NCBI GenBank assembly: GCA_963794325.1
Contig: CAWCDG010000003.1
Coordinates: 128,001 to 192,000 of the forward strand
DNA: 64,000 nt
Reading direction: 5' to 3'
Source of the DNA: an uncultured delta proteobacterium
GTDB taxonomy: Bacteria; Desulfobacterota; Binatia; Binatales; Binataceae
Under the pieces are notes generated by a model, which saw only the letters and a program-made list of their open reading frames with translations, was not told the DNA's origin and made no database searches. Both the position numbers and the translations under genes were made by a program. Below are positions 11,591 to 30,695 of the stretch, piece after piece; within the stretch, counting starts at the first letter, position 1; the number at the start of each line of letters is the position of its first letter.

Positions 11591-11617
11591 AAGGGCCTGC
11601 GCGGTTTGCAAATTTCT

Positions 11618-12616: not shown

Positions 12617-12619
12617 CGA

Positions 12620-13408
12620 CTAGCTTCGCGCGAACGCGACCACGACGACGAGCACTGCCAGCGCAATTCGATAGATCGCGAAACTCCGGTAGCTGTGGGT
12701 TCGCACGTAGTTCAGCAGCCAGACGATCGCGATCAGGCTGAAGACTGCGGAGGCCGCAAACCCCCATCCGAGCTGAGGCGTCAGGCCCGCCTGGAATGCG
12801 TGATGTGCTTCATGCAGGCCGGCGCCGGCGATGATCGGCGTCGCCATGAGAAAGGAGAAATTCGCGGCGTCGGCGCGCTCGATTCCGAGGAAGCGGGCGG
12901 TCGTGATGGTGGCGCCGGAGCGGGAGACGCCGGGGATGATCGCGAGCGCCTGGCTAAGGCCGATAAGGATGGCGTCGACCAAGGTGAGGTCGCCTATTTT
13001 GCGCTTTTTGGAGCCAATCGCATCAGCAGCCCACAAAAGAAGACCAAGGATAGCCAAGGTGCCGGCGATTAGTACCGGCGATCGAAAAATCGTCTCGGCC
13101 TCCTTCTCGAGCAGAACTCCGATGATCGCGCCGGGTACCGACGCGACTATCAACAGGAGCAGCAGCCGGCGCTGGTCGCGATTACCGTTGACCAGCGACA
13201 TCGCCATCTCGAGCCATTCCCGCCAGTAGAAGACCAGCAGCGCCAGCAGCGATCCCAGATGCAGCACGACATCGAAGGCGAGCCCGGGATCCTCTTGCCA
13301 CTTGAGCAGCCAGGGGATGAGGATCAGATGTCCCGAACTGGACACGGGTAGAAATTCCGTCAGACCCTGTACGATCCCTAGAACGATAGCCTGATATACA
13401 GAAAACAT
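12620..13408 (-). CDS. uppP: Undecaprenyl-diphosphate phosphatase (BacA)
   Basis: QGLTEFLPVSSSGHL and PGVSRSGAT signature motifs. Confidence 0.96.
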   Translation of the reverse strand: MFSVYQAIVLGIVQGLTEFLPVSSSGHLILIPWLLKWQEDPGLAFDVVLHLGSLLALLVFYWREWLEMAMSLVNGNRDQRRLLLLLIVASVPGAIIGVLLEKEAETIFRSPVLIAGTLAILGLLLWAADAIGSKKRKIGDLTLVDAILIGLSQALAIIPGVSRSGATITTARFLGIERADAANFSFLMATPIIAGAGLHEAHHAFQAGLTPQLGWGFAASAVFSLIAIVWLLNYVRTHSYRSFAIYRIALAVLVVVVAFARS

Positions 13409-13518
13409 AATGATTTCAGCTATTTAGGAGCAAAGCGCGAGTTTTATCCACAATTGTCCCGGTTGAGACCTATGCCTACGAAACTCGCCATTAGGTGAAA
13501 ACATGTCTAAGTTGCTCC

Positions 13519-13546
13519 TTGACCGGCCCGTTACTTGGTCTAGAAT
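13519..13546 (+). promoter_or_regulatory. Putative sigma70-type promoter
   Basis: TTGACC-N16-TAGAAT upstream of a GGAGG RBS and the 13593 ORF. Confidence 0.5.
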
Positions 13547-13592
13547 TGGTGGCTGTTAGCGGAAAGCAGATTCCGGGTAGTGGGAGGCATTA

Positions 13593-13922
13593 TTGCCTAT
13601 GAATCGAGTTGCCAGAGGCAAAGTTATTCCCTTAAGGGAAGTGAATGCGGTCGAGTCCGACGGAACGCCCGACCAGTCTGCGGTTTGGGATAACATCAAT
13701 CCCGGCGAGCCGCATCCGTTTCCGGTTGTTTCAACCCTGCCACGTTTGCCGGTGATGATTCCCGATGAGATTCTGGACTACTACGGCTGGGTATTTTGCC
13801 AAGGTGGATTCCTCAATCTTCAGATGACGTTTGAACAGTTCCTGGCCGTGGTGGCGGCGGTAAGTCCGGCCGGCCTCAGCCCCGAATACGACGCAAGCGA
13901 GGCATCGTACCCTAACGACTGA
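13593..13922 (+). CDS. Hypothetical protein
   Basis: Has an RBS, a promoter-like sequence and a downstream hairpin; no family recognised. Confidence 0.7.
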   Translation: MPMNRVARGKVIPLREVNAVESDGTPDQSAVWDNINPGEPHPFPVVSTLPRLPVMIPDEILDYYGWVFCQGGFLNLQMTFEQFLAVVAAVSPAGLSPEYDASEASYPND

Positions 13923-13954
13923 TCCTCCGCGATAGCGCTCCGGATCATTTCGAC

Positions 13955-13980
13955 GCCCGCCCGGGTTCTCTCGGGCGGGC
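13955..13980. terminator. Hairpin between convergent genes
   Basis: GCCCGCCCG-N8-CGGGCGGGC inverted repeat. Confidence 0.6.
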
Positions 13981-14009
13981 ATCGATTTTCTGGGCGGTAG
14001 ATTTTCGTC

Positions 14010-14714
14010 TTAATTCTCTCCAGCCGAGCCCTTTTTCGTGCTGCTCAGTAAGGTGTTCCTGACCCAGATGCTCGGCAGCCCGGTGCCGTCGGTGACAGAT
14101 TTGAGCCCGTTGTCCTGCGCTATTTGCCGCCAATTATCCGCGTTGCCGGTCGCGCGCTGCGCCAGACCCTTCAGGTCTTCATTGGGCAGGAGCGCGTAGT
14201 TGACGCCACCTTCTTTGGGCGTTCCGCCTGACGGTGGAAATTGCGCGGCCAGCTGATCCATCTTGGCGAAGAGATTCAGGCGGGTGGTCGCGTTATATTT
14301 GGAGATGTCCTCGTCGGCGACGTCCTCGACGCGGACATTGACGACCACTCTCGAGGTCCGAGGGCTGAGCGGCACGACTTCAATCTCGTAGCGATATTGC
14401 GGATGCTTCCCGACCAGATCGCCGAGCACACCGACCGGAACGTCGGCATCCTTCCACAGCGTGACGAGCTTGTCCTCGGGCTTAACCTCGAACAGGATAC
14501 CTTCGCCACGAAGCACGTCCTGGGTCAGAACGAAGGTGTCATTCGCGGTGTATGGAAAATCGCGCTGCTCGCCTACGGCCGCGTCGGTGCCGCCGCCCTC
14601 AGCGCGGTTGGCGTAGTACGGAGCGTAGTAGCATCCACTGAGAAGCAGGATCGAGAAAACGATCGCGACTTTTGGAAATTGCCGAAACACATGCCGCGCC
14701 GCGCTCATCACCAA
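14010..14714 (-). CDS. Putative lipoprotein with a C-terminal LysM-like segment
   Basis: Lipobox LLSGC; C-terminal EDLKGLAQRATGNADNWRQIAQDNGL resembles LysM. Confidence 0.7.
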   Translation of the reverse strand: MVMSAARHVFRQFPKVAIVFSILLLSGCYYAPYYANRAEGGGTDAAVGEQRDFPYTANDTFVLTQDVLRGEGILFEVKPEDKLVTLWKDADVPVGVLGDLVGKHPQYRYEIEVVPLSPRTSRVVVNVRVEDVADEDISKYNATTRLNLFAKMDQLAAQFPPSGGTPKEGGVNYALLPNEDLKGLAQRATGNADNWRQIAQDNGLKSVTDGTGLPSIWVRNTLLSSTKKGSAGEN

Positions 14715-14716
14715 TG

Positions 14717-14841
14717 CTAGCAGGCCGTTGATAAATCACGGCCTGCTCCCCCTCTCTTATCTCCCCCGCAACAGAGCGGGAGAGAAGATAAAGGAAAGCG
14801 GCCAGCTTTTATGCAGGGTGTCTTTTTCAACACCCTGCTAG
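14717..14841. mobile_element. Putative MITE (about 117 bp) with imperfect terminal inverted repeats and flanking CTAG duplication
   Basis: CTAG|CAGGCCGTTGATAAA ... TTTTTCAACACCCTG|CTAG; no ORF inside; internal hairpins. Confidence 0.65.
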
Positions 14842-14946
14842 GAAACCATGAGAGGTCGATGCACGCAAGTTGAACCTGCCGCGATTGCCGTTGCATTCGA
14901 TTGAGATTGCACGGCAGAGCGGCAGACGCTAATCAAATATACCCTT

Positions 14947-16308
14947 ATGGCCGATTCAGAAAATAAATCCTCGCGCCACGTAATGGCGGTGGTCGGCGCT
15001 GCGACTGCCGGTTCGGAAATCGCGCGAATCCTCGCCGATCGCGGCGCGCTCGTGATCGTGTTCGAGCAGAATCCGCGTCCGTACGGAAAAATCGAGGACG
15101 GGCTACCGCGATGGCACGTCAAGCAGCGCAGAGACGAGTACGAAGAAATCAACCAGCGCCTTGACCATCCGAATATCGAATATGTGCCGATGACCCGGAT
15201 GGGGCGCGAGCTCGACTTCGAAGACCTGCGCACCGGATGGGGCCTTAGCGGAATCGTGCTGACCCACGGCGCGTGGCGCGATCGCGCGTTTCCGGTCGAG
15301 GGCGCCGACGAATTCATCGATCGCGGCCTCGTTTATCAGAACAAGCTCATTTACTGGTTCAATCACTACCCGGAAAAGGCCTACAACGGCCCGCGCTACG
15401 ACCTGACTCCCGGGGCTATCGTCGTGGGCGGCGGACTCGCGTCGATCGACGTGGTCAAAGTGCTGCAAATCGAGATGACCCTGGCGGCGCTCAAGGCGCG
15501 CGGCATCGCCGCAGAGATGGTCGCGCTCGAACGCGAAGGCATCGAGCCGGTGCTGGCTGCGAGCGGCCTCAAGTACGCCGACCTGGGCGTCGCACCGTGC
15601 AAGCTGTACTACCGCCGGCGCGTGCTCGATATGCCGCTCTCGGACATTCCGCCCGACGCGCCGGCCAAGCGCGCAGACGCGCTCAAAGCAGCGCGCGCGA
15701 AGATTCTCGAAAAAGCTCAGCGCAAATTTTTGTTCGAGTTCCAGGAACTGCGCGCGCCGAGCGGCATCGTCGTCGAGAACGGCGCGATGGCGGGCGTAAT
15801 CTTCAGCCGCACCGAAGTCGCCGACGGACAAGTGCGGATTGTGCAGGAGGCTGCCGAATCCGCGCGCGCGCCGCTGATCATCAGCTCGATCGGCAGCATC
15901 CCCGAACCGATTCCCGGAATTCCGCAGAAGGGCGAAACCTATACTTACGTCGATCAGAAGATCGGGCTGCTGATGGACGGCCCGACCGCTGTGTTCGCCG
16001 CCGGCAACGTGCTGACCGGCAAGGGCAATATCAAGGACTCGCTCGACAACGGAACCGAGATTGGCACACTCGTCGCCGAGGCATACCTGGGGTTGTCGGA
16101 CGAGAAACTCAAGATTGCGGAAGGCGCGCGCAAAGAAGCGGCGGCGTCGGCCGAAAAGATCGCGGGCGCATTAAGCTCGCGCCAGCAGATCGCACCCGAA
16201 CAAGTCGCGCGACTACTCGGTCACGTCCGAAAGCGTCAACTGGCGGTCGGCTACGACGGCAACTACCGTGCCTGGATCGCCAAAGTCACGCCTCCCGACC
16301 TACACTAA
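14947..16308 (+). CDS. FAD-dependent oxidoreductase (ferredoxin-NADP reductase/FprA-like)
   Basis: N-terminal VVGAATAG, FEQNPRPYGKIEDG, second Rossmann VVGGGLASIDV and VFAAGN motifs. Confidence 0.75.
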   Translation: MADSENKSSRHVMAVVGAATAGSEIARILADRGALVIVFEQNPRPYGKIEDGLPRWHVKQRRDEYEEINQRLDHPNIEYVPMTRMGRELDFEDLRTGWGLSGIVLTHGAWRDRAFPVEGADEFIDRGLVYQNKLIYWFNHYPEKAYNGPRYDLTPGAIVVGGGLASIDVVKVLQIEMTLAALKARGIAAEMVALEREGIEPVLAASGLKYADLGVAPCKLYYRRRVLDMPLSDIPPDAPAKRADALKAARAKILEKAQRKFLFEFQELRAPSGIVVENGAMAGVIFSRTEVADGQVRIVQEAAESARAPLIISSIGSIPEPIPGIPQKGETYTYVDQKIGLLMDGPTAVFAAGNVLTGKGNIKDSLDNGTEIGTLVAEAYLGLSDEKLKIAEGARKEAAASAEKIAGALSSRQQIAPEQVARLLGHVRKRQLAVGYDGNYRAWIAKVTPPDLH

Positions 16309-16421
16309 AAGTCGCGCCGGGCTGATTTTTTCTTAATACTGGGTGCAGGCGTCCCCCCTTCTTTTGCCTCGTTGCGGACGCGACTGTAGGCTCATTTCGA
16401 TGACGACAACGGAGGTGCGGT

Positions 16422-17672
16422 GTGGACGAACTCAAGCGAACTGACCCGGAAATATTCGACCTCATAAAACAGGAAGAGCGGTACGAGATCGATTCGGTGC
16501 GGCTGATCGCGTCGGAGAATTACGTTTCGAAAGCGGTGCTCGAAGCGACCGGCTCGATTCTCACCAACAAATATTCCGAGGGCTACCCCGGCCGCCGCTA
16601 CTATGAGGGTCAGCGCAACATCGATCAGATCGAAGAACTGGCCGTCAACCGCGCCAAGGCGCTGTTCAAAGTCGATCACGCCAACGTGCAGCCGTACTCA
16701 GGCTCGCCGGCCAACGTCGCGATCTACTTCGCGTTGCTCGAGCCGGGCGATACGATCATGGGCCTCTCGCTGCCGCACGGTGGGCATCTGTCGCATGGAT
16801 GGCCGGTGAGCATCACCGGAAAGTTCTGGAAGTCGGCGCAGTACGTGGTCGATCGCGAAAGTCAGGTCATCGACTTCGACCAGGTCCGCGCGATGGCGCG
16901 CAAGGAGCGGCCGAAGATAATCGTGACCGGCGGCACGGCGTATCCGCGCCTGTGGGACTTCAAGAGCTTCAGCGAGATCGCGAAGGAAGTAGGCGCACTC
17001 CTGCTCGCCGACATTTCACACGTCGCGGGACTGATCGTCGGCGGCGTGCATCCGGATCCCGCGCCGTACGCCGACGTGATCATGACGACCACGCACAAAA
17101 CTCTGCGCGGTCCGCGCGGCGCGATGATCATGTGCCGCAACGAATACGCCGAAGCGATCGACAAGGCGGTGTTCCCGGGCTTGCAGGGCGGTCCGCACAA
17201 TCATACGACGGCGGCGATAGCGGTTGCGTTGAAGGAAGCCTCGACGCCGGAGTTCAAAACATACGCCAGGAAAGTGGTGAGCAACGCCAAAACTCTCGCC
17301 GACGAATTGCTCGCGCGCGGCTTCAGTCTCGTCTCGGGCGGCACCGACAATCATTTGATCCTGGTCGATCTGACGAACAAGAAGGTGATCGGCAAGAAAG
17401 GCGCGAAGGCGCTCGACGCGGCCGGAATCGTCTGCAACTACAACACCGTGCCGTACGATCCGCGCAAACCCTTCAGCCCCAGCGGCCTGCGCCTCGGCAC
17501 GCCTGCGGTTACGTCGCGAGGGATGGGCGACGCTGAGATGCGCCAAATCGCAAAATTCATGGACGAGGCGATCGCGCAGGCCGGCGACGAGACTGCCCTG
17601 AAACGAATTGCCGCCGCGGTCACCGAGATGTGCCGAAAATTCCCCGCCCCGGGAATCGCACTCACGCAATAG
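16422..17672 (+). CDS. glyA: Serine hydroxymethyltransferase
   Basis: LIASENY, NKYSEGYPGRRYY, TTTHKTLRGPRG and FPGLQGGP motifs. Confidence 0.98.
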   Translation: MDELKRTDPEIFDLIKQEERYEIDSVRLIASENYVSKAVLEATGSILTNKYSEGYPGRRYYEGQRNIDQIEELAVNRAKALFKVDHANVQPYSGSPANVAIYFALLEPGDTIMGLSLPHGGHLSHGWPVSITGKFWKSAQYVVDRESQVIDFDQVRAMARKERPKIIVTGGTAYPRLWDFKSFSEIAKEVGALLLADISHVAGLIVGGVHPDPAPYADVIMTTTHKTLRGPRGAMIMCRNEYAEAIDKAVFPGLQGGPHNHTTAAIAVALKEASTPEFKTYARKVVSNAKTLADELLARGFSLVSGGTDNHLILVDLTNKKVIGKKGAKALDAAGIVCNYNTVPYDPRKPFSPSGLRLGTPAVTSRGMGDAEMRQIAKFMDEAIAQAGDETALKRIAAAVTEMCRKFPAPGIALTQ

Positions 17673-17734
17673 GGCTTTGTTACCCGCCCCATGGTATGGT
17701 TCGAGGTTCCTGATTTCAGGGGAGGTTCGGCACA

Positions 17735-18220
17735 ATGGATTATTTCAAGAGAACTTTATCTGTCCTTGCGTGGAGTTCGTTAGCGGCAATTTTGATTCTG
17801 GCGCCCTGTGGAACGGCGCGCGCTCAGGACTCGAGTAGCGCCGGTGTATCGCAGCAGCCTGACAAGAATGGTCCGAATATCGCCGGATGCTGGCAGGGCA
17901 ACGCGTTCAACGATAGCCAGGGCAACACCAGTATTCAGTTTTTCTTCCAACAGACGGGAAAGAAACTCAGCAAGAAACACAGCACCCTCGACATTGAGCC
18001 CGCCGTGTCCGTTCACGGACCGATCATCGGCAAGGTCTCGTCCGCCAAGTTCACGTTTCACGGCCACATGGCCAATGGGTGCAATATCAAGGGGCATGGG
18101 ACTTTCCAGACCCCTACCAGCCTCGAGGGAGGCTACAGCTACGTCGGCAAATGTTATGAAATGGGGTTCACCAGCGGCGAGTTCTCAAGCGTAACCAGGT
18201 TAGGCGCGACCTGTCCGTGA
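17735..18220 (+). CDS. Secreted hypothetical protein (beta-rich, 4 Cys in the mature part)
   Basis: GGAGG RBS; signal peptide ending ARA|Q. Confidence 0.7.
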   Translation: MDYFKRTLSVLAWSSLAAILILAPCGTARAQDSSSAGVSQQPDKNGPNIAGCWQGNAFNDSQGNTSIQFFFQQTGKKLSKKHSTLDIEPAVSVHGPIIGKVSSAKFTFHGHMANGCNIKGHGTFQTPTSLEGGYSYVGKCYEMGFTSGEFSSVTRLGATCP

Positions 18221-18233
18221 TGATGAAAGCTGA

Positions 18234-19313
18234 ATGGCAAAAATAAAAGTTGAACGCGGCCTTCATCTCGGGATGCCGTATACGCCCGACATGCAGGATG
18301 GCGGAAAGCGGCCCGAACCTACCTGGAGCACGATTCGCGACCAGGTGCGCGAGGCCGATGCGCTCGGCTACGACACGATCCTCGCAGTCGAAACGCAGCA
18401 CGATCCGTATCTCGAGCTCGCAATTGCCGCGCAGGAGCCGTCGAAGATCGAGCTCGCGACCGGTATCGCGCTCGCCTACACGAAGAGTCCCGTCGCGACG
18501 GCGTACACTGCGTGGGACTTGCAGCGGATGAGCGGTGGGCGTCTGAATCTCGGACTCGGCTCGCAGGTGAAGGGTCATGTGACGCGGCGCTTCGGGATGC
18601 CGTGGTCGAAGCCGGCGCAGCGGATGAAAGACTACGTCGGTGCGATGCGCGCGTGCTGGCGCACCTGGCAGACTCGCGAGCCGTTCAACTTTCAGAGCGA
18701 GCACTACAATCTCTCGCTGATGACGCCGAACTTCGCGCCGCCGCCCCTGTCGAATCCGCACATCCCCGTGCTGATTGCGGCGGTGCAGGAACGGATGCTG
18801 CAAGTTGCGGGCGAAGTCTGCGACGGTGTGCGCCTACATGGAATCGTCACGCGTAAATATCTCGATCAGATCGCATTCCCGAATCTGAAAAAGGGCTTCG
18901 ACAAATCGGGCAAGCCGGCCGCGGAGTGGAGCAACTTTCAAATCGGCGGCGGCGGCTTTCTATGCGCCGCGAAAGATAAGGACTCGCTCGCTCGCGCCGT
19001 CAACGGAATGAAATCGACCATCGCGTTTTACGGATCGACCCGATCGTATCGTTCGAGTTTTGAAATCGACGGATGGGGCGACACTGCCGACCAGTTGCAC
19101 AAACTATCCGTGCAGCAGAAATGGCCCGAGATGGCGAAGCTGGTGACTGACGAGATGGTGCATGCGTTCGCGGCAGTCGGCACCTACGACGAGATCGCGG
19201 GAGTGATCAAGAAACGCTTCGCCGGAGTGAATCGCCTCTCATTCGACATGCCCGTGAAGACCGATCACGACCGCGGCGTGCTGAAGGAGATCATCCAGGA
19301 CTTGCGACGCTAG
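18234..19313 (+). CDS. LLM-class F420-dependent oxidoreductase (TIGR03617-like)
   Basis: ETQHDPY, AWDLQRMSGGRLNLGLGSQVKGH..RRFG, LMTPNF and IAFYGST motifs. Confidence 0.88.
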   Translation: MAKIKVERGLHLGMPYTPDMQDGGKRPEPTWSTIRDQVREADALGYDTILAVETQHDPYLELAIAAQEPSKIELATGIALAYTKSPVATAYTAWDLQRMSGGRLNLGLGSQVKGHVTRRFGMPWSKPAQRMKDYVGAMRACWRTWQTREPFNFQSEHYNLSLMTPNFAPPPLSNPHIPVLIAAVQERMLQVAGEVCDGVRLHGIVTRKYLDQIAFPNLKKGFDKSGKPAAEWSNFQIGGGGFLCAAKDKDSLARAVNGMKSTIAFYGSTRSYRSSFEIDGWGDTADQLHKLSVQQKWPEMAKLVTDEMVHAFAAVGTYDEIAGVIKKRFAGVNRLSFDMPVKTDHDRGVLKEIIQDLRR

Positions 19314-19319
19314 TAGGCT

Positions 19320-20018
19320 CTAGGCAAGCGGGTTGATGTCCGACCACAGCCGGCGCATCAACTCGATATGTGTCTCGACCGCCCACAGCGTTTCGGCCGC
19401 GGCGCTCTCGGGTATGGCACGGAAGATCGAACCGGCGCTCGAGTCGCCGTGATCCTTGTCAACCTTGACGTGGACGCTGAAGAACAGCAGCGCGTCGTCG
19501 GAGAGTTTGTAATGGCGGCTGAGTCCGTCGATCACGCGGACGTAAGCATCGGGGTTGAACAGCTCGGAGCCGAGGCTGATGCCGGCGAGGGTCACGTACC
19601 ACGGCTTCGATTCGGCCAGCCAGTACATCCAATGCATCATCGCAGTCGCGTCGGCGGTCATGCTCGCGTTGAGCAAGTCGGCGCGCGGGATACCGATGGC
19701 CTCGCCGAATTCGAGATAGAGTTCCGGGTGCGATCGATTGGCGCCGGAGACGCGGCCGAGCTCCTCTTCGATCAGGTTTTCGACGATCGCCTTGCGCGCC
19801 GGAAAGTCGTCGCACTTGGCGTAGATGAGGCCGAGAATATTGGCGTTGTGCGCCTTGTTGCCGATGAAGAGCTGGGTCGCCCAATGGCGGAGCTGCGGCA
19901 ATGACAACTCGCCACGTTCAATCTTCTCGATCGTCGGATGTGACCGAAGCGTGCGATTGTTCCGCTCGAGTTTCTCGATCAAGGCTTTGAGCTGGCGTGT
20001 TCCTTTTTCGACATCCAT
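19320..20018 (-). CDS. PqqC/TenA/CADD-like heme-oxygenase-like diiron oxidase
   Basis: HP..EKIERGELS, ENLIEEELG...H, SE and FFSVHVKVDKDH, matching the E/H/E/HxxxDxxH ligand set of CADD. Confidence 0.82.
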   Translation of the reverse strand: MDVEKGTRQLKALIEKLERNNRTLRSHPTIEKIERGELSLPQLRHWATQLFIGNKAHNANILGLIYAKCDDFPARKAIVENLIEEELGRVSGANRSHPELYLEFGEAIGIPRADLLNASMTADATAMMHWMYWLAESKPWYVTLAGISLGSELFNPDAYVRVIDGLSRHYKLSDDALLFFSVHVKVDKDHGDSSAGSIFRAIPESAAAETLWAVETHIELMRRLWSDINPLA

Positions 20019-20020
20019 GA

Positions 20021-21673
20021 TCAAGTTCCTTGCGGAGCAACGGCTCCGGAAGCCAACGCGGCGCGTTCGGCGGCGAGTTTATCGGCGATATCGCGGCGCA
20101 GTTCAGACTTTCTGATCTTGCCAACGTTGGTCAGCGGCAATTCGGTTACGATCTCGATCCGTTCGGGCCATTTGAATTGCGCTACGCCACGAGCCGCAAG
20201 AAACTCGCGTATGGCGGAGAGCGCCAGCGTGTCTCCATCGCGCAGCGACAAATAGGCGCACGCCTTTTCACCCAAGATAGCGTCGGGCATCGCCACGATG
20301 GCGACGGCGCTGACGGCAGGATGCGCGAGCAAATGTGCTTCGATTTCTTCGGCGTTGATTTTTTCACCGCCGCGATTGATCAGGTCCTTGATTCTTCCCT
20401 CGACCACGAGGCTCCCGGACGTATCGAGGCGCACCAGGTCCCCGCTTCGGTAGAATCCGTCGGCGCTAAAGGCGTCGCGATTCCGCTCGGGGGCACAGTA
20501 GTAACCGCGAATCGTATATGGTCCGCGACACCATAGTTCGCCAATCGCGCCGGTCGCTACGTCGGCTCCGTTGGGGGTTACGATCCGTATCTCGTCGGCC
20601 TGCGAGAGTGGCCGGCCCTGTGTCGTGAAGGCGACTTCGTCGCGATCGTCGAGGCGCGTGTAGCACAGTAATCCTTCGGCCATGCCGAGAACCTGCTGCA
20701 CGATGAGGTGAGAAAAACTGCCTTTGAGAGCCCGCGCGGTTGGCTCCTGGAGCCGTTGACCGCCGATCGTGATTACGCGCAGCGACGCAAGTTGGGTGCG
20801 TGACGACGACGGAAGGTCAAGCAGAGCGATGGCAATCGCAGGGACGCATGGCAGGTGGGTGATTTGTTCGCGTTCGATCGTGTTCGCGAGATCAGCCGCC
20901 GCGAGTGACTGGGTGAAGACGGTGCGCGCTCCCACCAGCATCGCGCCGAGCAACCCGGGGCATGCCAACGGAAAGTTGTGCTCACAGGGAAGCGCGATCA
21001 GGATTCGCGATTCGGAGGTGAGGCCGGTTGCGGCGGCGGATTCACGCGCGTTGTACAGATAATCGGCGTGAGTGCGAGGAATGAGTTTCGGCAGGCCGGT
21101 AGTGCCGCCGGAAAGAAGGAATAGCGCGACCTCGAAAGGGTCGCCGCTGTTTGAAGATCCGAATGCACGTGGCGAGGCAGAGCTCTCGCGCATCGAGACG
21201 CATCCCGCGGCCGAGGTCGTTGAAAGAATGAGATGAGGCTTTAGCTCTCGCGCCAGCGTAGCGTGATCGAATCCGCGATGTTCGGGTGCGATAGCGATTG
21301 CCTTTGCGTCGGAGAACGACAGGAGATATTCGAGCTCGGCTCTGCGGAAGGCGGGAAGCGCCATGACCGGAATCGCGCCGATTTCGAGACATGCGAGGGT
21401 TAAGGTTGCGAATTCGACGCAGTTAGGAAGTTGAATGATGATGCGATCGTTGCGCTCGATCCCATTGCGAGAGAGGAGGGCGGCGACGCATCCTGCTTCA
21501 TCCAACAGCTGCGAACAGGTCAGGCTTCGGGTCGCATCGGTGACGGCAATGGAGTCGGGGCGATTTGCCGCGGCCTTTGCAATTGCATCGGGGATAATTT
21601 CGCGGCGCCAGATTCCTTCGCGAACGTAGCGCTCGGCGAATTCGGCGGGGAATGGCGTGCATCCTTCGAGCAT
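20021..21673 (-). CDS. Aryl acid-AMP ligase (EntE/DhbE/MbtA family, salicylate-type)
   Basis: LSGGTTGLPKLIPRTH, HNFPLACPG, QQVLGMAEGL, FYRSGD, RGGEKI and VGKIRK motifs. Confidence 0.9.
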   Translation of the reverse strand: MLEGCTPFPAEFAERYVREGIWRREIIPDAIAKAAANRPDSIAVTDATRSLTCSQLLDEAGCVAALLSRNGIERNDRIIIQLPNCVEFATLTLACLEIGAIPVMALPAFRRAELEYLLSFSDAKAIAIAPEHRGFDHATLARELKPHLILSTTSAAGCVSMRESSASPRAFGSSNSGDPFEVALFLLSGGTTGLPKLIPRTHADYLYNARESAAATGLTSESRILIALPCEHNFPLACPGLLGAMLVGARTVFTQSLAAADLANTIEREQITHLPCVPAIAIALLDLPSSSRTQLASLRVITIGGQRLQEPTARALKGSFSHLIVQQVLGMAEGLLCYTRLDDRDEVAFTTQGRPLSQADEIRIVTPNGADVATGAIGELWCRGPYTIRGYYCAPERNRDAFSADGFYRSGDLVRLDTSGSLVVEGRIKDLINRGGEKINAEEIEAHLLAHPAVSAVAIVAMPDAILGEKACAYLSLRDGDTLALSAIREFLAARGVAQFKWPERIEIVTELPLTNVGKIRKSELRRDIADKLAAERAALASGAVAPQGT

Positions 21674-21679
21674 CGTTGG

Positions 21680-22342
21680 TCAGCGCGCGGAAAGCGTTCC
21701 CGCGATCATGCGGAAGCATTCGTCCATGATGCGGCTGCGCTGTTCGTAATCGCGCGCCGGTTCGTACCACGTATAGAACCAGTTCATCGCGCCGAACAGC
21801 AGCGAGGTGAGGATTCGCGTCTGCTCGCGGTCGAGAGTTTTGTTGCGATGCGCGGCGTAGGCCTCGAGCAGGCGGCGGCAGATGCGCGAATACTCGCGCT
21901 TGAGGCGCGTGATGTCGGCGGCATAGCGGCCGGTCAACGAATCAGCTTCGCGCACGAGCACTTTCATCTCGGCGAGATTGCTCATGTGATATTCGAGATG
22001 GCTGCGGATGAAGAGGCGCAAGCGTTCTTCGGGGTCGTCGGTCTCGGACATTCGCGCTTCGGCGAGCGAGACCAGTTGCTCGAACGCGCGGCGCGAGATG
22101 AGGTAGAGGAGCTCCTCCTTGTTGCGGAGGTAATAGTAGATGCGGGGAAAGGAGATTCGCGCGCGTGCGGCGATGTCGCGAATCGAGGCGAGGCCGAAAC
22201 TTTTCTCGGCAAAAACCGCGGCGGCCGAGCTCAAGATGTGATCGACGTTCGCGTCGTAGCGCTCGTCTGGCGCAATCGCGCGCGGCGCCGGCTTGATTCG
22301 CGCGACACGCTTCGGCGCCTCATCGAGATTTGATTTCTTCAA
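21680..22342 (-). CDS. TetR family regulator (KstR2-like C-terminus)
   Basis: ILSSAAAVFAEKSF..ASIRDIA...IYYYLRNKEELL HTH and GAMNWFYTWY. Confidence 0.92.
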   Translation of the reverse strand: MKKSNLDEAPKRVARIKPAPRAIAPDERYDANVDHILSSAAAVFAEKSFGLASIRDIAARARISFPRIYYYLRNKEELLYLISRRAFEQLVSLAEARMSETDDPEERLRLFIRSHLEYHMSNLAEMKVLVREADSLTGRYAADITRLKREYSRICRRLLEAYAAHRNKTLDREQTRILTSLLFGAMNWFYTWYEPARDYEQRSRIMDECFRMIAGTLSAR

Positions 22343-22351
22343 TTCATCACC

Positions 22352-23092
22352 TCAACTGAATCGGCGTCCGGAAGCCGGGTCAGGAATTGGAATCTCGAGC
22401 TTGGTCAGCAGATTGTTGACCTCTTCGGTGAACTCGTCGCGCATTTGCTCGTTGCTGCGGCGCCGGAGGCCCCATCGTACGTAATCGAACTGCCGCTTGG
22501 ATCCAGATTTTCCGAACATATCGAGTCCCGCGGGATACCACTTTGCCAGATGTTTTTTCAGGAGTTCTCGTCCGGGATCGCCTTCGCGTTGAAGATACCT
22601 GCGAATCAGGCGATAGCCGAAGGCGGCATGGCCGAGTTCCTCTTTGTGCACGCGCTCGGCGATTCGCGCGAGCGGTTCGTAGCTGCATCCGACCCATTCG
22701 TATCCCATGTAGGCGCCCTGCCGGTCGGCGAAGAAACTGAAGAGGCCGTACTCGAGCCAATCCTCGGCCTGGTCGCGCATTTCGAAAATGTAGATAGGCA
22801 TCGGAGACGCCATGAACCTGCTGTCGACGGTGACGCCGAGGTCCTCAAGCAGCTTCATCCAGTAGCTCGCGTGACGAACTTCGTCGGACCAGAATGCAGC
22901 GTACTCGGCCTTGTCTTCGGCTGTGGGAGCCATCGCGAGCGGCTTCATGAGTGTGCGTTCGGGGGCGAGCATATATTCGGACTCGATTCGCGACTGGATC
23001 GAGAGCATCCGGATGAGGAGATCCTTGTAGTCGGCGGGGAGACCGTCGGGGCTCGCGAAGCGGATATCGGTCGCAGGTGGTGGATTGCTCAT
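22352..23092 (-). CDS. PaaA/BoxB-like ferritin-fold diiron aryl-CoA epoxidase subunit
   Basis: APT.EDK, DEVRH, FADR, CSYEPLARIAERVHKEELGH, WYPAGLDMFG and WGLRRRSNEQMR motifs. Confidence 0.85.
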   Translation of the reverse strand: MSNPPPATDIRFASPDGLPADYKDLLIRMLSIQSRIESEYMLAPERTLMKPLAMAPTAEDKAEYAAFWSDEVRHASYWMKLLEDLGVTVDSRFMASPMPIYIFEMRDQAEDWLEYGLFSFFADRQGAYMGYEWVGCSYEPLARIAERVHKEELGHAAFGYRLIRRYLQREGDPGRELLKKHLAKWYPAGLDMFGKSGSKRQFDYVRWGLRRRSNEQMRDEFTEEVNNLLTKLEIPIPDPASGRRFS

Positions 23093-23119
23093 GCTGTGTT
23101 GCCGTCCTGTGCTGATGTT

Positions 23120-23161
23120 CTGAACGATAGTTCAGTTATCACTGGAGGCAGACCGGGTCAA
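23120..23161 (-). promoter_or_regulatory. Putative TetR operator and promoter for the paaA-like unit
   Basis: Perfect palindrome CTGAAC-GATA-GTTCAG (23120-23135) just upstream of the 23092 start; minus-strand TTGACC at 23161-23156. Confidence 0.6.
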
Positions 23162-23185
23162 TCGTGCGGTCGCGGCGCGATGTTA

Positions 23186-24133
23186 TCAGGATCCGGCGAA
23201 TTGCGGGATGACTTCTTCCGCGAATGCCTGCAGCTCGTCCTCGGCGGTCAACGGCCCCTGCATGAATATGAAATGGGTGACTCCCGCCTTCGCGAAGCGT
23301 TCGATCGTATCGATACACTCCTGCTTGCCGCCGATGATCATTCGATCGCGCGCTTTTTCCGGCGTGGTCTGCGCCATCATCGCAATTAGCCCTGTCACTA
23401 TCTCCTCGCGCTGTTTGGCTGGCTTGTAGCACATCGCCATCATCTCGGTTTTTTCGATCTCGTCAGCGTCGCGTCCGACCGTATCGCAGTGCCGCTCGAT
23501 GACCCCGATCAGGCGCTCCATCTCGGGAAGGTCGGCGTTGGTCATGTTCCACATGTCGGCGTACCTGGCGACAATCTTCAGCAGGACGCGTTCGCCGTGG
23601 CCGCCAATCATGAGCGGCAAGTGCTTCTGCAGAGGCTTCGGACTGCAGACCGCGTCGATTACGTCGTAGTGCTTCCCATGGAGCGTAGTTTTGTCATTCG
23701 TGAACATTCCCTTGATTATCTGGCACGACTCGTCGAGTGCCTGTAGCCGGCCCGCCACGGTTTTGAAATCGATCCCGAAGCTCCTGTGCTCCAATTCGAA
23801 CCATCCGGCGCCGAGTCCAAGATTCAGTCGTCCGCCGCTCGCGATGTCGAGTGTGGCTGCCATCTTGGCGAGCACGCAGGGATTGCGATAGGTGTTGCCG
23901 TTGACTAGCGCTCCGATCCGCGCGCGCTTGGTGTGCTGGCTCAGCGCGCTGAGCAGCGTCCATCCTTCCATGCAAGGTCCGGTCGGATCGGGCACGAAGA
24001 TTGGGTAAAAATGATCGAACGCCCACAATGAGTCATATCCCCATCCGTCCGCTTTCGACCACAAATCGCGTATCTGATCGAAGGTTAAGTTTTGCTGAAC
24101 GATTTGGGCTCCGAAGCGGATCGGGTGTTTCAT
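23186..24133 (-). CDS. LLM-class F420-dependent oxidoreductase (TIGR03560-like)
   Basis: DHFYPI, EGWTLLSAL, YRNP..LAKMAATLD..SGGRL.LGLGAGW and PLMIGGHGE motifs. Confidence 0.9.
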   Translation of the reverse strand: MKHPIRFGAQIVQQNLTFDQIRDLWSKADGWGYDSLWAFDHFYPIFVPDPTGPCMEGWTLLSALSQHTKRARIGALVNGNTYRNPCVLAKMAATLDIASGGRLNLGLGAGWFELEHRSFGIDFKTVAGRLQALDESCQIIKGMFTNDKTTLHGKHYDVIDAVCSPKPLQKHLPLMIGGHGERVLLKIVARYADMWNMTNADLPEMERLIGVIERHCDTVGRDADEIEKTEMMAMCYKPAKQREEIVTGLIAMMAQTTPEKARDRMIIGGKQECIDTIERFAKAGVTHFIFMQGPLTAEDELQAFAEEVIPQFAGS

Positions 24134-24166: not shown

Positions 24167-24925
24167 TTAACCGGCCATCGTCAGGCCGCCGCTTACGCTT
24201 AGGACCTGGCCGGTGACGAAGTCCGAGTCGGCACTGGCGAAGAATGCGACCGCGCCGGCGAGGTCGGAGGGTTGGCCGAGGCGACGAAACGGGATTCCGC
24301 GCGCCATCGATTCGAGAACTTTCTCGCGTCCCGCCATCGCGGTTTTGAGTAGCGCGGTGTCGGTTGGGCCGGGGCAGACGACGTTGACGTTGATGTGATT
24401 CGCGGCGAGCTCGCGCGCCAGCGTTTTCGAGAAGCCGATGATAGCGGCTTTGCATCCGGCGTAAACCGCTTCGCCGGTCGAGCCGACGCGGGCAGCGTCG
24501 GAGGAAATCGAAATGATTTTACCGGAGCCGCGGGATTGCATTCGCGGCGCGACCGCCTTGCAGCAATTGAGCATCCCGCGATAGTTGATCGCGATCACCT
24601 TGTCCCAAAGATCGGGAGTGGTTTCGACGAACGGCATCAGGATGTCCCATCCGGCGTTATTCACCAGGATGTCGATCGGGCCGAGTTCCCGCTCGACGCG
24701 ATCGGCAGCTGCGATAGCCTCGTCGAGTTTGGTGACGTCGAGCGCGACCGCGATTGCGGATGCTCCGTCGCCGCGAATTTCTTCAGCGGCGCGCTGCGCG
24801 GAATCGAACTGAATATCCGCCAACGCGACCTTGGCGCCTTCATCGGCGAGTCGCGACGCGATTGCACGCCCGATTCCCTGCGCGGCGCCGGTTACGATTG
24901 CGACCTTGCCGGTCAGACGGGTCAT
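24167..24925 (-). CDS. SDR oxidoreductase, BadH (2-hydroxycyclohexanecarboxyl-CoA dehydrogenase)-like
   Basis: NNAGWD, SSDAARVGSTGEAVYAGCK, VCPGPTDT and VSGGLTM motifs. Confidence 0.85.
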   Translation of the reverse strand: MTRLTGKVAIVTGAAQGIGRAIASRLADEGAKVALADIQFDSAQRAAEEIRGDGASAIAVALDVTKLDEAIAAADRVERELGPIDILVNNAGWDILMPFVETTPDLWDKVIAINYRGMLNCCKAVAPRMQSRGSGKIISISSDAARVGSTGEAVYAGCKAAIIGFSKTLARELAANHINVNVVCPGPTDTALLKTAMAGREKVLESMARGIPFRRLGQPSDLAGAVAFFASADSDFVTGQVLSVSGGLTMAG

Positions 24926-24934: not shown

Positions 24935-25690
24935 TCAACTTGCGATCCAACCGCCGTCGATGATGAACGGAGCGCCCGTTGCGAACGGGGCTTCGTCACT
25001 GGCGAGGAAGAGCGCGGTGTGCGCGATTTCGTCGGCGCTGCCGACGCGGCCCAGCACCGAGCTGCGCTGAATGAATCGCGGTTGCAGTCCGTCGGGCCCG
25101 GTGATCCGATCGACCATCGGCGTGTGAATCACTCCCGGGCAAATGCAGTTGACGCGAACGTTGTAGCGCCCGTACTCGAGCGCCGCGACGCGGGTCAGCG
25201 AAATCACTCCGGCCTTGGCCGCGCAGTATGCGGCCGCGCCCTTGAGCCCGACGATCCCCGCCACCGATGCGGTGTTGATCACCGCGCCGCCGCCGCGCTC
25301 GACGAGTTTCGGCAGTCCGTACTTCATTCCGAGCCATACGCCGCGCAGGTTGATCGCGATCACTCGGTCGAAGGCCTCCTCGCTGAGCTCGGCCATGAAA
25401 CCGGACTCGCCTTCAATTCCCGCGTTGTTGTAAAGCACGTCGAGTCCGCCGAACGCGCGGACCGTTTCTTCGACCATCGCGCGCGCGTCCTCGGAGTCGG
25501 AGACGTCGGCGCGCAACGAGATAGCGTCACCGCCGGCCGATTTGATCATTCGCGCAGTCTCGGCTGCCGAGGACTCCACTACGTCGATGGCCGCGACTTT
25601 CGCGCCTTCGCGCGCGAACAAGACTGACGCCGCGCGACCCATTCCAGAGCCAGCGCCAGTGATCAGCGCTACTTTTCCTTTGAGTCTCAT
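24935..25690 (-). CDS. SDR family oxidoreductase
   Basis: TGAGSGMG, NNAG and YCAAK motifs; start set at ATG 25690 after GGAG. Confidence 0.92.
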   Translation of the reverse strand: MRLKGKVALITGAGSGMGRAASVLFAREGAKVAAIDVVESSAAETARMIKSAGGDAISLRADVSDSEDARAMVEETVRAFGGLDVLYNNAGIEGESGFMAELSEEAFDRVIAINLRGVWLGMKYGLPKLVERGGGAVINTASVAGIVGLKGAAAYCAAKAGVISLTRVAALEYGRYNVRVNCICPGVIHTPMVDRITGPDGLQPRFIQRSSVLGRVGSADEIAHTALFLASDEAPFATGAPFIIDGGWIAS

Positions 25691-25767
25691 TGATACCGCT
25701 CCATTGGCCGCGAGATTAGCGCATTTCAGTGCGATGCGGTTAGCGGGATGCAATTCACTTTATTTAA

Positions 25768-27505: not shown

Positions 27506-30500
27506 TCAATGAAAATCGTGCGACGGCGGGATGGTGCCGGGAATCTTGATTTCCTCGAACCGGCGCGCGCGAATCGCGGTCACGCCGTCAACCTGTTGCA
27601 GAACCCCTTCCGCCATCAGGATACTGGCGCTGCGCAGCAGCAAACGGTTTTGCTGGAATAAGTCGGGCGTGACGATCAGGTTGGCGATCCCGGTTTCGTC
27701 CTCGAGCGTGATGAACAAAAAACCCTTGGCGGTGCCGGGACGTTGACGCACGATCACGACGCCCGCGGTCTTCACCCACGTCTGATGCTTGGCGCGGGTT
27801 AGATCGTCGGCGCTGAGAACTCCGCGCGCAGTCAAATCGGTGCGCAGATACGTCATCAGATGAGGGCCGGTGGTGAGGCCGGTCGCGGCGTAGTCGGCCA
27901 GCGTTTCATCGATCGGCGTCATCGATGCGAGGGGAACCTCGCTATCGCGCGGTTTCACGCCAGCCAGCAGGCTCGCGGGATCGCGTTCGACCGCGGCCGC
28001 GTTCCACATCGCGTCGCGCCGCGCCAGGCCGAACTCGGCGAACGCGCCCGCGTAGGCCAGCGCGTCGATCTCGCGGCGGTTCGGTCCGATGCGCGCAGTA
28101 AGATCAGCGATCGAATCGAACTGTCGCCGGGCGCGCTCGCTCTCAATACGAAGTCCAACTTCTTCGCGCAGGCCGGTGACGTATCGCAGTCCCATCCGCA
28201 TCGCGGGGCGCCCATCGACAATTTCGATTGTGCATTTCCAGTTCGAGCGGGTCACGTCGATCGGCAGCACGACGACACCGTGCCGCGCGGCGTCTTTGAC
28301 CAGCGTCGAGGGATGGTAGAAGCCGAGCGGATAGCAATTCAGCATCGCGGCAGTGAACGCTGCAGGGTGGTGGTACTTCAGATACGCGGACGCGTATGCG
28401 ATCAGCGCGAAGCTCGCCGCGTGTGACTCGGGAAATCCGTACAGCGCGAACGACGTGATCGAGCGCACGATGTCGTCGGCGACGCTGCCCTGCAGGCCGT
28501 TTCGCAGCATCCCGGCGCGCAAGCGTGCCTCGATTTTTTCCATCCGCTCCGCCGAGCGCTTGAATCCCATCGCGCGGCGCAGCTCCTCGGCCTCGCCGCC
28601 ACTGAACCCTGCCACCGTCATCGCCATTCGCAGCAACTGCTCCTGGAAAAGCGGGACGCCCAGCGTGCGTTTCAGTATCGGCTCGAGCGACGGATGCGGA
28701 TACTCGACGGGCGCGCGTTTGTTGCGGCGATCGAGATAGGGATGCACCATTTTGCCGACGATGGGGCCGGGGCGAATTATCGCGACCTCGACCACCAGAT
28801 CGTAAAATCGCTCGGGCTTCATCCGCGGCAAGGTCGCCATCTGTGCGCGGCTTTCGATCTGGAAAACGCCAACGGTGTCCGCGCGCCGAAGCATCGCGTA
28901 CACGTCGGGATCGTCGGCCGGTAGATGCGCGAGATCGATCTCGACTTCCTCATGCGCGCGGATCATCGGGATCGCTTCTTTCAGCGCGGCCAGCATCCCG
29001 AGTCCGAGCAGATCGATCTTGATGATGCCGAGGTCGGCGCAGTCGTCCTTGTCCCACTGAATCACGACGCGGCCGGGCATCGAGGCCGGCTCGAGCGGCA
29101 CGATCTCATCGAGCGGCTGCGCGGCGATCACCATGCCGCCGCTATGCTGCCCGAGATGACGCGGCAGGCTTTGAATTTTGCGCACGAGCTCGACCAGCAT
29201 TCTGATTCGCGGCGCTTCCGCATCGACGCCGCCGCGCTTGAGCAGCGCGACGAGATCGTCGTGATGGTCGCGGAACTCGTACACCTGGTTGAGCTTGGCG
29301 AGCCGGTCAACCTGTTCGGGCGAGAAGCCGAGCGTCTTGCCGACTTCGCGCACCGCGCTGCGAGTGCGATAAGTGATCACGTTCGCGGTCATCGCGGCGC
29401 CGCGTTCGCCGTAGCGGCGATAGACGTATTGAATCGCCATCTCGCGATCGTCGCCGCTAGGCAAGTCGAGATCGATGTCGGGCCATTCGCCACGCTCCTC
29501 CGACAGAAAGCGCTCGAACAGGAGTTCCATCTTGACGGCGTCCACCGCCGTGATTCCGAGCGCGTAACACACCGCGCTGTTGGCCGCGGAGCCGCGCCCC
29601 TGCACCATGATTCGGTTCTCGCGGCAGAACTGGACGATGTCCCAAACGATCAAGAAGTATCCGGCGAGCTTGAGCCGCTCGATGATCCCGAGCTCGTGTT
29701 CGAGTTGACGGCGAGTGCGATCGTCGATCGCGCCGCGCCATCGTTCGCGCGCACCCGCGTATGTGAGTATTCGCAAATAGCTGTCGGGCGTTTCGTTGGG
29801 TGGGAGCGGATAGTCGGGGAAGCGATAACCCATGTCGCAGAGCTGGAAAGTGCATCGCTCGGCAATCGCGCGCGTGGTGGCGACGGCAGCAGGGATATCG
29901 CGAAACAGCGCATTCATCTCGGCCGGAGATTTCAGATGGCGCTGGCTGTTGATCCACAGCGCGCGGCCAGCCTCCTCGAGCGTGGTCTTGAGACGGATGC
30001 AGGTCAGCACGTCGAGTAGCCTGCGATCCGAGCCGCCGTGGCATACGTCGTTGGTCGCGACAATCGGGATTCGCGCCGCATCGGCCAGCGCGGCGAGCTT
30101 GCGATTGAGGCGCTCCTCGCCGGCATCGAGATGCCGCTGCAAATCGATGTAGAAATTGTTCGCACCGAAAATCCCGCTCAGCCGGTTGCACAGATCGCGA
30201 GGATCGTCGCCGCGAATAAGCATCCGCGACAACGGGCTCATCACGCCGCCGGCCAGGCAGATAAGTCCGCTGCCATAGCGTTCGAGCTCGTCGAGCGTAA
30301 TTCGGCTCTCAGTCTTGGCGGGATAGACGGGTGCCGCGATGGAGCCGTCGCGAGAGAGCGCGCCGGGATTGAGCACGCGCATCTTGGAGTCGGTGATCAT
30401 GCGGCAGAGATTTTGGTAGCGCTTGCGATCGGGTGCGAGGAGGTAGAGGCGCGAATCGTCGTCGAGGGTCAGCTCGGCGCCGACGATTTGCCGGATGTTC

Positions 30501-30676: not shown

Positions 30677-30695
30677 GGCGATGCGACACGATTGG

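Follow-up and report, generated by a model that had tools for sequence, protein, structure and literature searches.

A candidate TetR-controlled operon joining an aryl-acid ligase to two diiron proteins in an uncultured Binataceae bacterium

What would a bacterium do with an aryl-acid ligase of the siderophore type, a PaaA-family diiron protein encoded apart from any other Paa component and a protein resembling the 4-aminobenzoate synthase CADD, when the three genes are packed together with that of a TetR regulator? The question is raised by a 64-kb stretch of DNA from an uncultured bacterium (contig CAWCDG010000003.1), which is referred to at its full length as the window. Four minus-strand open reading frames (ORFs) lie between positions 19320 and 23161 in the order PaaA-like protein, TetR regulator, ligase and CADD-like protein, the last being a heme-oxygenase-like diiron protein (HDO). 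The G+C content is about 60% all along the window, and the closest matches of its proteins are found in metagenome-assembled genomes of Candidatus Binatus and the Binataceae, with identities of up to 97%. The answer proposed here, which is held tentatively and given somewhat less than an even chance, is that the four genes are an operon under repression by the TetR, whose enzymes would convert a salicylate-like aromatic acid with O2 and by way of an activated thioester. The operon and its 5' region comprise the following features.

22352-23092, minus strand: stand-alone PaaA-family (ferritin-like) diiron oxygenase, 246 aa, ATG start (PF05138, 5e-22)
21680-22342, minus strand: TetR-family regulator, 220 aa, TTG start (TetR_N and TetR_C_24, Pfam)
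20021-21673, minus strand: aryl-acid adenylating ligase of the DhbE/EntE/MbtA family, 550 aa, ATG start (AMP-binding and AMP-binding_C)
19320-20018, minus strand: CADD-like HDO, 232 aa from the ATG at 20018 (PF14518, 1.3e-26)
23120-23135, no strand assigned: perfect palindrome CTGAAC-TATC-GTTCAG, candidate TetR operator (sequence and conservation)
23156-23161, minus strand: -35-like hexamer TTGACC, 5' of the operon (read in the sequence, function putative)

The ORF of the HDO was called as 19320-20024 on the minus strand (234 aa, from a TTG), but translation more probably begins at the ATG at 20018 (MDVEKG...), since homologues have a length of 233 aa and an MDV N-terminus. The junctions then read TGA, 9 nt, TTG between the PaaA-like and TetR genes, TGA, 6 nt, ATG between TetR and ligase, and TGA, 2 nt, ATG (20018) between ligase and HDO. 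An earlier account of this DNA made from the letters alone (the sequence-only reading) had described four tightly packed minus-strand genes with gaps of 2-9 nt behind a palindrome and a TTGACC of their own. The gaps of 9, 6 and 2 nt agree with that description, and both elements are read 5' of the operon, at 23135-23120 and 23161-23156. A strict sigma-70 scan of positions 18900-23400 finds no promoter, so that a promoter is not demonstrated, and the same interval has only two terminator-like sites, both intragenic and fewer than in shuffled sequences. None of the enzymes of the operon reaches the curated cut-off of any characterised family in NCBIfam.

Related loci were collected by comparing an alignment of the PaaA-like family with contigs from one genome per species, and the best 80 of 124 confirmed loci were examined with approximately 10 kb on each side. 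By identity and tree, these 80 loci form four groups, A (57 loci), B (7), C (4) and D (12). A quick IQ-TREE analysis of the PaaA-like proteins of 76 loci and the window, leaving out four loci with short or interrupted matches, places each group on one side of a branch (supports 98, 98, 94 and 100); the branch that divides groups A to C from group D has a support of 100%. Group A represents 57 species genomes of the Binataceae with PaaA-like identities of at least 76% and a common gene order: two short-chain dehydrogenases/reductases (SDR2, then SDR1), the palindrome, PaaA-like gene, TetR, ligase and HDO, followed by a convergent unit encoding a luciferase-like monooxygenase (LLM) and SHMT. Six of these loci are too short to judge the full operon; all 51 that extend at least 3.9 kb past the PaaA-like start contain ligase and HDO, and TetR is present as well in 50 of the 51, L060 being the exception.

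Outside the Binataceae the gene set is smaller. Group B, from another Binatia lineage (PaaA-like identity 62-68%), has a ligase with 44-47% identity to that of the window immediately before the PaaA-like gene in seven of seven loci, a TetR_N and TetR_C_24 regulator upstream in two and an FNR-like reductase (FAD_binding_6 and NAD_binding_1) downstream in two, with otherwise varying neighbours (intradiol dioxygenase, hydrolase, acyl-CoA dehydrogenase, a second AMP-binding enzyme, amidase). The four group C loci are from Chloroflexota (PaaA-like identity 52-54%), and in each a small protein with three conserved cysteines, which has a weak Fer4_19 match (E 0.004), directly follows the PaaA-like gene; a ligase gene comes next in L062 only. 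No HDO gene is present in the seven group B loci or the four Chloroflexota loci. The PaaA-like relatives of group D (34-38% identity) have no adjacent ligase and occur in unrelated, mixed contexts, for which reason they were rejected as members of the same system. The independently recurring unit is only the pair of ligase and PaaA-like gene, in different gene orders. Conserved co-occurrence, which the sequence-only reading had proposed as a check, is found for all four genes in 50 of 51 Binataceae loci, is confined to that one family and extends elsewhere only to this pair.

Control of the operon by its own regulator is suggested by the palindrome. With up to one mismatch allowed, the pattern occurs a single time in the 64 kb, where 0.06 occurrences are expected; among 100 shuffled sequences, 6 contained it one or more times. 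The palindrome is found exactly in 50 of the 57 Binataceae loci and within one mismatch in 53, with flanks that have diverged, and all 50 exact copies in the 1,377,001 bases of the loci lie no more than 170 nt upstream of the PaaA-like start. Most Binataceae loci also have TTGAC- or TTGAT-like hexamers at the position corresponding to the TTGACC. Three loci (L047, L048 and L059) combine a variant site, CCGAAC-N4-GTTAGG, with the most divergent TetRs (64-68%), and L060 has neither the palindrome nor the TetR gene. Because site and regulator vary or vanish together in these loci, the embedded TetR is predicted to control the operon through the palindrome, and the co-variation is the best evidence available for this. 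The features of a TetR repressor are all present, namely a TetR_N helix-turn-helix, a ligand domain and an operon-specific, conserved palindrome that co-varies with the protein. In NCBIfam the TetR is most similar to the SACE_7040 family, Bacillus FadR and FasR, with each score below the cut-off, and its PDB relatives include the fatty-acid regulator FadR and KstR2. Regulators of the FadR, FasR and KstR2 type sense acyl-CoAs.

The PaaA-like protein passes the broad Pfam family (PF05138, 78.8 bits against a cut-off of 28.5) and lies outside the characterised families within it. It scores 86.5 bits with the PaaA model TIGR02156 (equivalog cut-off 280), 24.9 bits over 67 residues with the BoxB model TIGR03225 (cut-off 499.1) and 20 bits with the PaaC model; BoxB is further set apart by length (approximately 470 aa against 246 aa) and by the lack of BoxA in the window. 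Among proteins of solved structure it is closest to PaaA chains (6e-11 to 2e-10) and to SSO1313 (4mud), an archaeal orphan. Compared with the PaaA chains, the protein is about 65 residues shorter (246 aa against 311-320) and has roughly 21-22% identity. The ligand columns of PaaA, the numbering of which is in part assumed, are occupied by E37, E71, H74, D123, E152 and H155; across 20 relatives five of the six are invariant and H74 is at least 90% conserved, so that the full diiron ligand set claimed earlier for this protein is indeed kept. A structure model with a pLDDT of 92.1 matches PaaA (TMq 0.74-0.77), SSO1313 (0.73-0.75), PaaC (0.68-0.73) and BoxB (0.60-0.72). Modelled as a homodimer, the protein scores 0.76 against 0.01 for the best control, with an interface through residues 41-80, contact agreement between runs of at least 100% and a partner pLDDT of at least 90; of proteins with solved structures, 20 of 30 same-chain pairs and 1 of 23 single chains reach the mark applied.

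The clade of this protein is rare, as an exhaustive phmmer search of 1.84 billion representatives returned 394 matches at 1e-3, 142 at 1e-10 and 18 at 1e-30. The fusion partners of the distant relatives in that search are only tandem PaaA_PaaC domains or unannotated extensions, with no ligase, carrier or reductase among them. Two of these relatives (P0293 and P0313, 489-500 aa) contain two PaaA_PaaC stretches each and may be fused PaaA/PaaC-like tandems. A 436-aa 'fused' PaaA-like protein was set aside as a read-through artefact, as Pfam recognises no domain in its 190 additional residues and these do not match the TetR. The ESM Atlas provided no lead, its look-alikes being confined to unnamed PaaA_PaaC clusters and, below 0.9, to clusters resembling aldehyde decarbonylases.

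The ligase belongs to the aryl-acid adenylating family by full-length similarity and by its architecture of an AMP-binding domain (PF00501, 3.4e-68) and a C-terminal domain (PF13193). Its PDB matches range from 6.4e-140 to 3e-125, the best being 5wm2, 'Salicylate-AMP ligase' (6.4e-140), and it scores 531 bits over residues 5-526 with TIGR02275, the model for 2,3-dihydroxybenzoate (DHB)-AMP ligases, which is below the equivalog cut-off of 723.55. At the two pocket motifs, whose positions we take to set acid specificity, the alignments give HNFPLACPG and GLLCYTR; the first of these motifs had been noted in the sequence-only reading and is confirmed in the translation. Chains deposited as salicylate or salicyl-AMP ligases have HNFALACPG/GLLNYTR (5wm2) and HNFTLCCPG/GLICYTR (PchD, 7tyb), and 5kei, which is deposited as a DHB-AMP ligase, has the same HNFPLACPG as the window ligase. 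The DHB-type pockets of DhbE (1md9, HNYPLSSPG/GLVNYTR) and 6e8o (HNFPMSSPG/GLVNYTR) differ from it. The pocket of the window ligase appears to be of the salicylate rather than the 2,3-DHB type, and salicylate as its substrate would be a family-level guess. In three of the related loci (L050, L055 and L056), the ligase gene (approximately 11400-13100) is split into several ORFs with its neighbours intact, possibly through assembly frame errors or gene decay.

The HDO passes PF14518 (94 bits against a cut-off of 28.9) and scores 85.6 bits with the CADD model TIGR04305 (cut-off 200) and 29 bits with the PqqC model TIGR02111 (cut-off 240), which places it outside PqqC; the 'PQQ synthase' labels on its homologues are automatic database names. 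The E/H/E/HxxxDxxH set attributed earlier to the last gene is found as E87/E88, H99, E154 and H185-x3-D189-x2-H192, and this set of three histidines and three carboxylates is conserved in the family. Together with the seven-helix fold of the model (pLDDT 85.3), it identifies a member of the HDO superfamily. The best structural match is CtCADD (TMq 0.81), followed by PqqC, UndA (0.74-0.77), BesC (0.70) and FlcD, and the closest solved relatives by sequence are the 4-aminobenzoate synthases 9pj4, 1rcw and 8va9 (1.1e-11 to 2e-9). CADD sacrifices its Tyr27 and Lys152 (PMC13108848, in the portion of the text available). These residues are replaced in the HDO by Ile32, which is at least 90% conserved in the family, and by Val, so that, judged by its residues, the HDO is not a self-sacrificing enzyme of the CADD type or a p-aminobenzoate synthase of that kind. 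In group A the HDO is as conserved as the PaaA-like protein (76-97% identity), and the ligase has 58-82% identity. The HDO gene would be a lineage-specific addition in the Binataceae that is translationally coupled to the ligase gene.

Several related loci have additional genes near the HDO. An aromatic-type O-methyltransferase (PF00891) is encoded directly after it, on the other strand, in L037 (13879-14898, minus strand) and L041 (13897-14988, minus strand), and L037 also has a second, distant HDO paralogue with 27.5% identity (16199-16939, minus strand). In L048, ligase and HDO are separated by an inserted gene for a 582-aa protein that has a GIY-YIG nuclease domain at its C-terminus (13169-14917, plus strand). 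Other variant loci have inserts of a DUF4440 gene (L043) or of unannotated ORFs (L025, L029). No insert, that of L048 included, is informative about the pathway.

Partners that such enzymes might use were sought with a Pfam scan of 65 window ORFs. These were the ORFs of 70 aa or longer from a greedy call, less one spurious entry, together with the two SDRs. No match was found among them for a carrier protein (PP-binding), a non-ribosomal peptide synthetase (NRPS), an isochorismate or salicylate synthase, PaaB, PaaC, PaaD, PaaE or the Box components, which bears out the earlier claim that the 64 kb hold no carrier, NRPS, salicylate synthase or Paa/Box partner. PaaB, PaaC, PaaD and PaaE are also missing from the annotated parts of L051, L062 and L063, and no carrier protein, condensation domain or NRPS turned up in the annotated related loci. 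The description of the PaaA protein as 'lone' holds in this sense for the window and does not extend to the sister clades, which place a ferredoxin-like protein or a reductase beside it. Because those clades encode the small cysteine protein (4 of 4) or the FNR-like reductase (2 of 7) alongside, the PaaA-like protein would need an electron donor that is unlinked in the Binataceae.

Under the proposed mechanism, the ligase would adenylate a 2-hydroxybenzoate-type acid and pass the acyl group to CoA. A homodimer of the PaaA-family protein, in place of the PaaA/PaaC pair, would then oxygenate the ring of the aryl-CoA by hydroxylation or epoxidation, acting through its diiron centre with O2 and with an unlinked donor, either a ferredoxin or a reductase. 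The HDO might perform a second O2-dependent step on the product of the PaaA-like protein or on a related intermediate, which is the least certain part of the scheme. The TetR would bind the palindrome near a putative promoter (TTGACC 20 nt upstream), with the aryl-CoA or the acid as the effector that releases it. The conservation of an aryl-acid ligase beside a diiron protein of the PaaA/BoxB fold suggests that an aryl group is first activated and then oxygenated, as in the Paa and Box pathways. A CoA thioester is plausible as the intermediate because there is no carrier nearby, because the ligase Ccb2 offers a precedent and because a CoA-dependent salicylate route exists. The narrower proposal of an unrecognised aerobic aryl-CoA pathway, in which a self-sufficient, single-subunit PaaA-family homodimer lacking PaaB, PaaC and PaaE attacks salicylyl-CoA from the siderophore-type ligase and the HDO then oxidises an aromatic or CoA-bound substrate, is doubtful as it stands.

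Several known systems are close to this scheme. Relative to PaaABC(D)E, the PaaA-like protein has the same ferritin-like diiron fold and the same six ligand columns and retains Glu49 as Glu45, and the gene of an aromatic-acid ligase is adjacent, as is paaK in paa clusters. The differences are that PaaA is co-encoded with PaaC, PaaB and the reductase PaaE whereas the window has none of the three, that the PaaA-like protein is modelled as a homodimer and that its partner ligase is of the DhbE type, not a phenylacetate-CoA ligase of the PaaK type. BoxB/BoxA resembles the proposed system as a diiron oxygenase acting on an aryl-CoA from a dedicated ligase and by the fold match given above; BoxB chains, however, have approximately 470-480 residues, and the window contains neither BoxA nor BoxC. 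A salicylate-AMP-type ligase starts the CoA- and oxygenase-dependent degradation of salicylate in Streptomyces sp. WA46, the Sdg route, which proceeds by a salicylyl-CoA 5-hydroxylase and a gentisate 1,2-dioxygenase (PMC4600096, PMC13215587, both in the portions available). The window differs from this route in having two diiron proteins, no gentisate dioxygenase and no second CoA synthetase. The salicylyl-CoA 5-hydroxylase of the Sdg route is a flavoprotein. Among the related loci, the group B locus L054 has a second AMP-binding enzyme (5971-7536, plus strand; 25.6% identity to the window ligase) directly 5' of its ligase, and these paired enzymes recall the two-enzyme SdgA/SdgB layout.

Ccb2 of celesticetin biosynthesis is similar to DHB- and salicylate-AMP ligases, has no carrier in its cluster, adenylates salicylate and transfers it to CoA (PMC5416915, in the excerpts available). 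The window ligase is like it by description only, as a stand-alone DhbE-like enzyme in a carrier-free cluster; Ccb2 differs by feeding an acyltransferase in an antibiotic cluster without a diiron oxygenase. CADD and NePabS are the best sequence and fold matches of the HDO and share its pattern of three histidines and three carboxylates, but the sacrificial Tyr27 and Lys152 are Ile and Val in the HDO, and the HDO gene is coupled to a ligase gene.

A number of observations weigh against the oxygenation of a salicylyl thioester. The 65 window ORFs include no crotonase, thioesterase, gentisate or catechol (ring-cleavage) dioxygenase or aldehyde dehydrogenase, and therefore nothing nearby would process an epoxide or a dihydroxy-aryl-CoA. 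The small cysteine protein, the FNR-like reductase and the group B TetR likewise have no significant homologue in the window (best E 0.15-2.6). The available portion of one study describes Lys68 of PaaA as the centre of a 'lysine bridge' beside the substrate ring (PMC4498308). In the PaaA-like protein this residue is Phe67, a position fixed through the E49Q/K68Q mutant chain 4ii4, and the column is F, Y or T in relatives. The bridge, in which Lys68 is held by Glu49, Glu72 and Asp126, is thus not formed, and the chemistry may therefore differ from epoxidation. The result of the homodimer modelling may reflect only a likeness to the solved PaaA-PaaC complex and is open to doubt because that pseudo-dimer has already been solved. 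The synteny of the four genes is phylogenetically shallow, being that of one family, and it is weak independent evidence because the whole Binataceae neighbourhood is syntenic, including the SDR, LLM and SHMT flanks. The ligase is also missing beside the PaaA-like gene in three of the four Chloroflexota loci, within 10 kb on each side in L063 and within approximately 1.5 kb downstream in L064 and L065.

The choice of acid is subject to similar reservations. As a rule, enzymes of the DhbE family load carrier proteins, and a carrier may be encoded elsewhere in the genome, beyond the approximately 10 kb covered on each side of each locus. Of the 51 readable Binataceae ligases, 11 lack the pocket Cys, the position being Cys in 40, Ala in 9 (mostly H[NH]F-x-L-G-A) and Ser in 2, with two ligases garbled by frame breaks and four that are cut off left out of the count. 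The earlier assignment of this Cys to the salicylate type therefore stands insofar as the motifs match salicylate enzymes with structures, and is limited by the 40 of 51 Binataceae ligases that have it. Pockets elsewhere read HNFGLAAPG/GFIT(T/A)TR in group B and HNFPLSSPG/GLLNYTR in group C. Because the motifs vary both between and within groups, the acid probably differs across the wider ligase family.

Three other explanations have to be set against this reading. The operon might serve biosynthesis, with the ligase loading a salicylate-like starter on an unlinked carrier or NRPS, or providing an aryl-CoA to a transferase, and the diiron enzymes tailoring the aryl unit into a small metabolite, for example a signalling compound or one that resembles a siderophore. 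This is unlikely but credible, as the ligase is a full-length enzyme of the siderophore type with CahJ-like 5wm2, DhbE, PchD and EntE as its top PDB matches, and the window scan places no ring-cleavage or beta-oxidation-type genes beside the operon. About a dozen HDOs have been validated, predominantly with fatty- and amino-acid substrates, and most of them serve natural-product biosynthesis (PMC13108848, in the available portion); the aromatic O-methyltransferase genes adjoining the HDO in L037 and L041 point the same way. A biosynthetic role is, however, harder to reconcile with the lack of carrier, condensation domain and NRPS in the 64 kb and in the annotated loci, with a TetR_C_24/FadR-like regulator and a PaaA/BoxB-like oxygenase, both typical of CoA-thioester catabolism, and with the size of the cluster, since four genes with only a repressor are few for a biosynthetic cluster.

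The CADD-like protein might instead act first and make the aromatic acid, which the ligase would activate and the PaaA-like protein modify, possibly in connection with folate or methanopterin. The relationship of the HDO to 9pj4, 1rcw and 8va9 in both sequence and fold suggests such a role, as does the convergent unit of SHMT and a TIGR03617 LLM, related to methylene-H4MPT reductase, that is syntenic in most Binataceae loci; but the SHMT operon lies on the opposite strand, the sacrificial residues of CADD are Ile32 and Val, the TIGR04305 score is 85.6 bits against 200, the ligase pocket is of the ortho-hydroxy (salicylate) type and not obviously fitted to p-aminobenzoate, and no HDO accompanies the ligase and PaaA-like pair in other lineages. 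Taken together, this order of events is decidedly unlikely. That the genes are neighbours by descent only, packed by a compact genome and working in unrelated processes, is scarcely credible. The entire neighbourhood, with two SDRs upstream and the LLM/SHMT unit downstream, is indeed syntenic in the Binataceae, so that a shared function does not follow from the conservation of the four genes by itself, and the HDO is not linked to the ligase and PaaA-like pair outside them, yet the junctions of 2-9 nt have coupled stops and starts, a dedicated, conserved operator co-varies with the embedded TetR, and the ligase and PaaA-like pair is present in another order in seven of seven group B loci and in another phylum.

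The transformation of a salicylate-like acid through an activated thioester thus remains the preferred reading, and its components have not been described together. No part of the operon falls outside the known superfamilies, and the logic of the whole is a familiar one; the combination itself appears to be new. Literature searches, which left supplementary tables aside, found no NCBIfam equivalog, PDB entry or paper covering the combination of ligase, PaaA-like protein and HDO, in keeping with the earlier claim that it is undescribed. Among titles and abstracts, no paper was found that links salicylyl-CoA with a diiron enzyme, and the 'PaaA-like' literature is not about such an enzyme. The available part of a 2026 survey of phenylacetate pathways makes no mention of 'stand-alone', 'orphan' or 'Binat' (PMC13186573). 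A genome survey of the Binatota makes no mention of salicyl-, phenylacet-, aromatic, benzoate, siderophore or PaaA, and aromatic metabolism in the Binataceae is not discussed there (PMC8262859). If the proposal is true, the operon would be a third aerobic 'hybrid' aromatic route beside Paa and Box, with a one-subunit oxygenase and a ligase from the siderophore world, and would provide the first aromatic or thioester substrate for the HDO superfamily. It would also give a function to genes conserved across the Binataceae, an abundant uncultured lineage of soil and peat, and supply a compact, portable set of parts (ligase, oxygenase, repressor and 16-bp operator) usable for biocatalysis or as a salicylate or aryl-CoA biosensor.

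The genes that adjoin the operon in the window are listed below.

23186-24133, minus strand: F420-dependent LLM-class oxidoreductase (TIGR03560, 259.9 bits against a cut-off of 231.4)
24167-24925, minus strand: SDR, BadH-like (313.7 bits against a cut-off of 431.2)
24935-25753, minus strand: second SDR (Pfam)
14947-19313, plus strand: convergent unit encoding an NAD(P)-binding oxidoreductase, SHMT, an unknown protein of 161 aa and a Mer-like F420 LLM

The LLM gene at 23186-24133 sits between the SDR pair and the operator and looks like a genome-specific insertion beside the operon, because none of the 80 related loci has a counterpart. The Mer-like LLM of the convergent unit scores 361 bits with TIGR03617 (cut-off 278), and the LLM and SHMT genes are syntenic with the HDO gene in most Binataceae loci. 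This unit may belong to C1/folate metabolism; its link to the CADD-like gene is unproven.

Further along the window, a mutasome cassette is encoded on the minus strand at 27506-33323, with an ImuA-like RecA-fold protein, an ImuB-like protein of the IMS family and DnaE2 (NF004225, 1266 bits). An F420-0:gamma-glutamyl ligase and two radical SAM genes of the CofH/CofG type form a set for F420 biosynthesis (36763-40877, minus strand), which is consistent with the many F420-type LLM enzymes nearby. An FAD_binding_3 monooxygenase at 34527-35727 (minus strand) is present as two ORFs of 87 and 330 aa that match successive parts of the profile, possibly owing to a frameshift or sequencing error. Finally, a small stand-alone TIR-domain protein (TIR_2, 4.5e-26) is encoded on the plus strand at 52291-52695.

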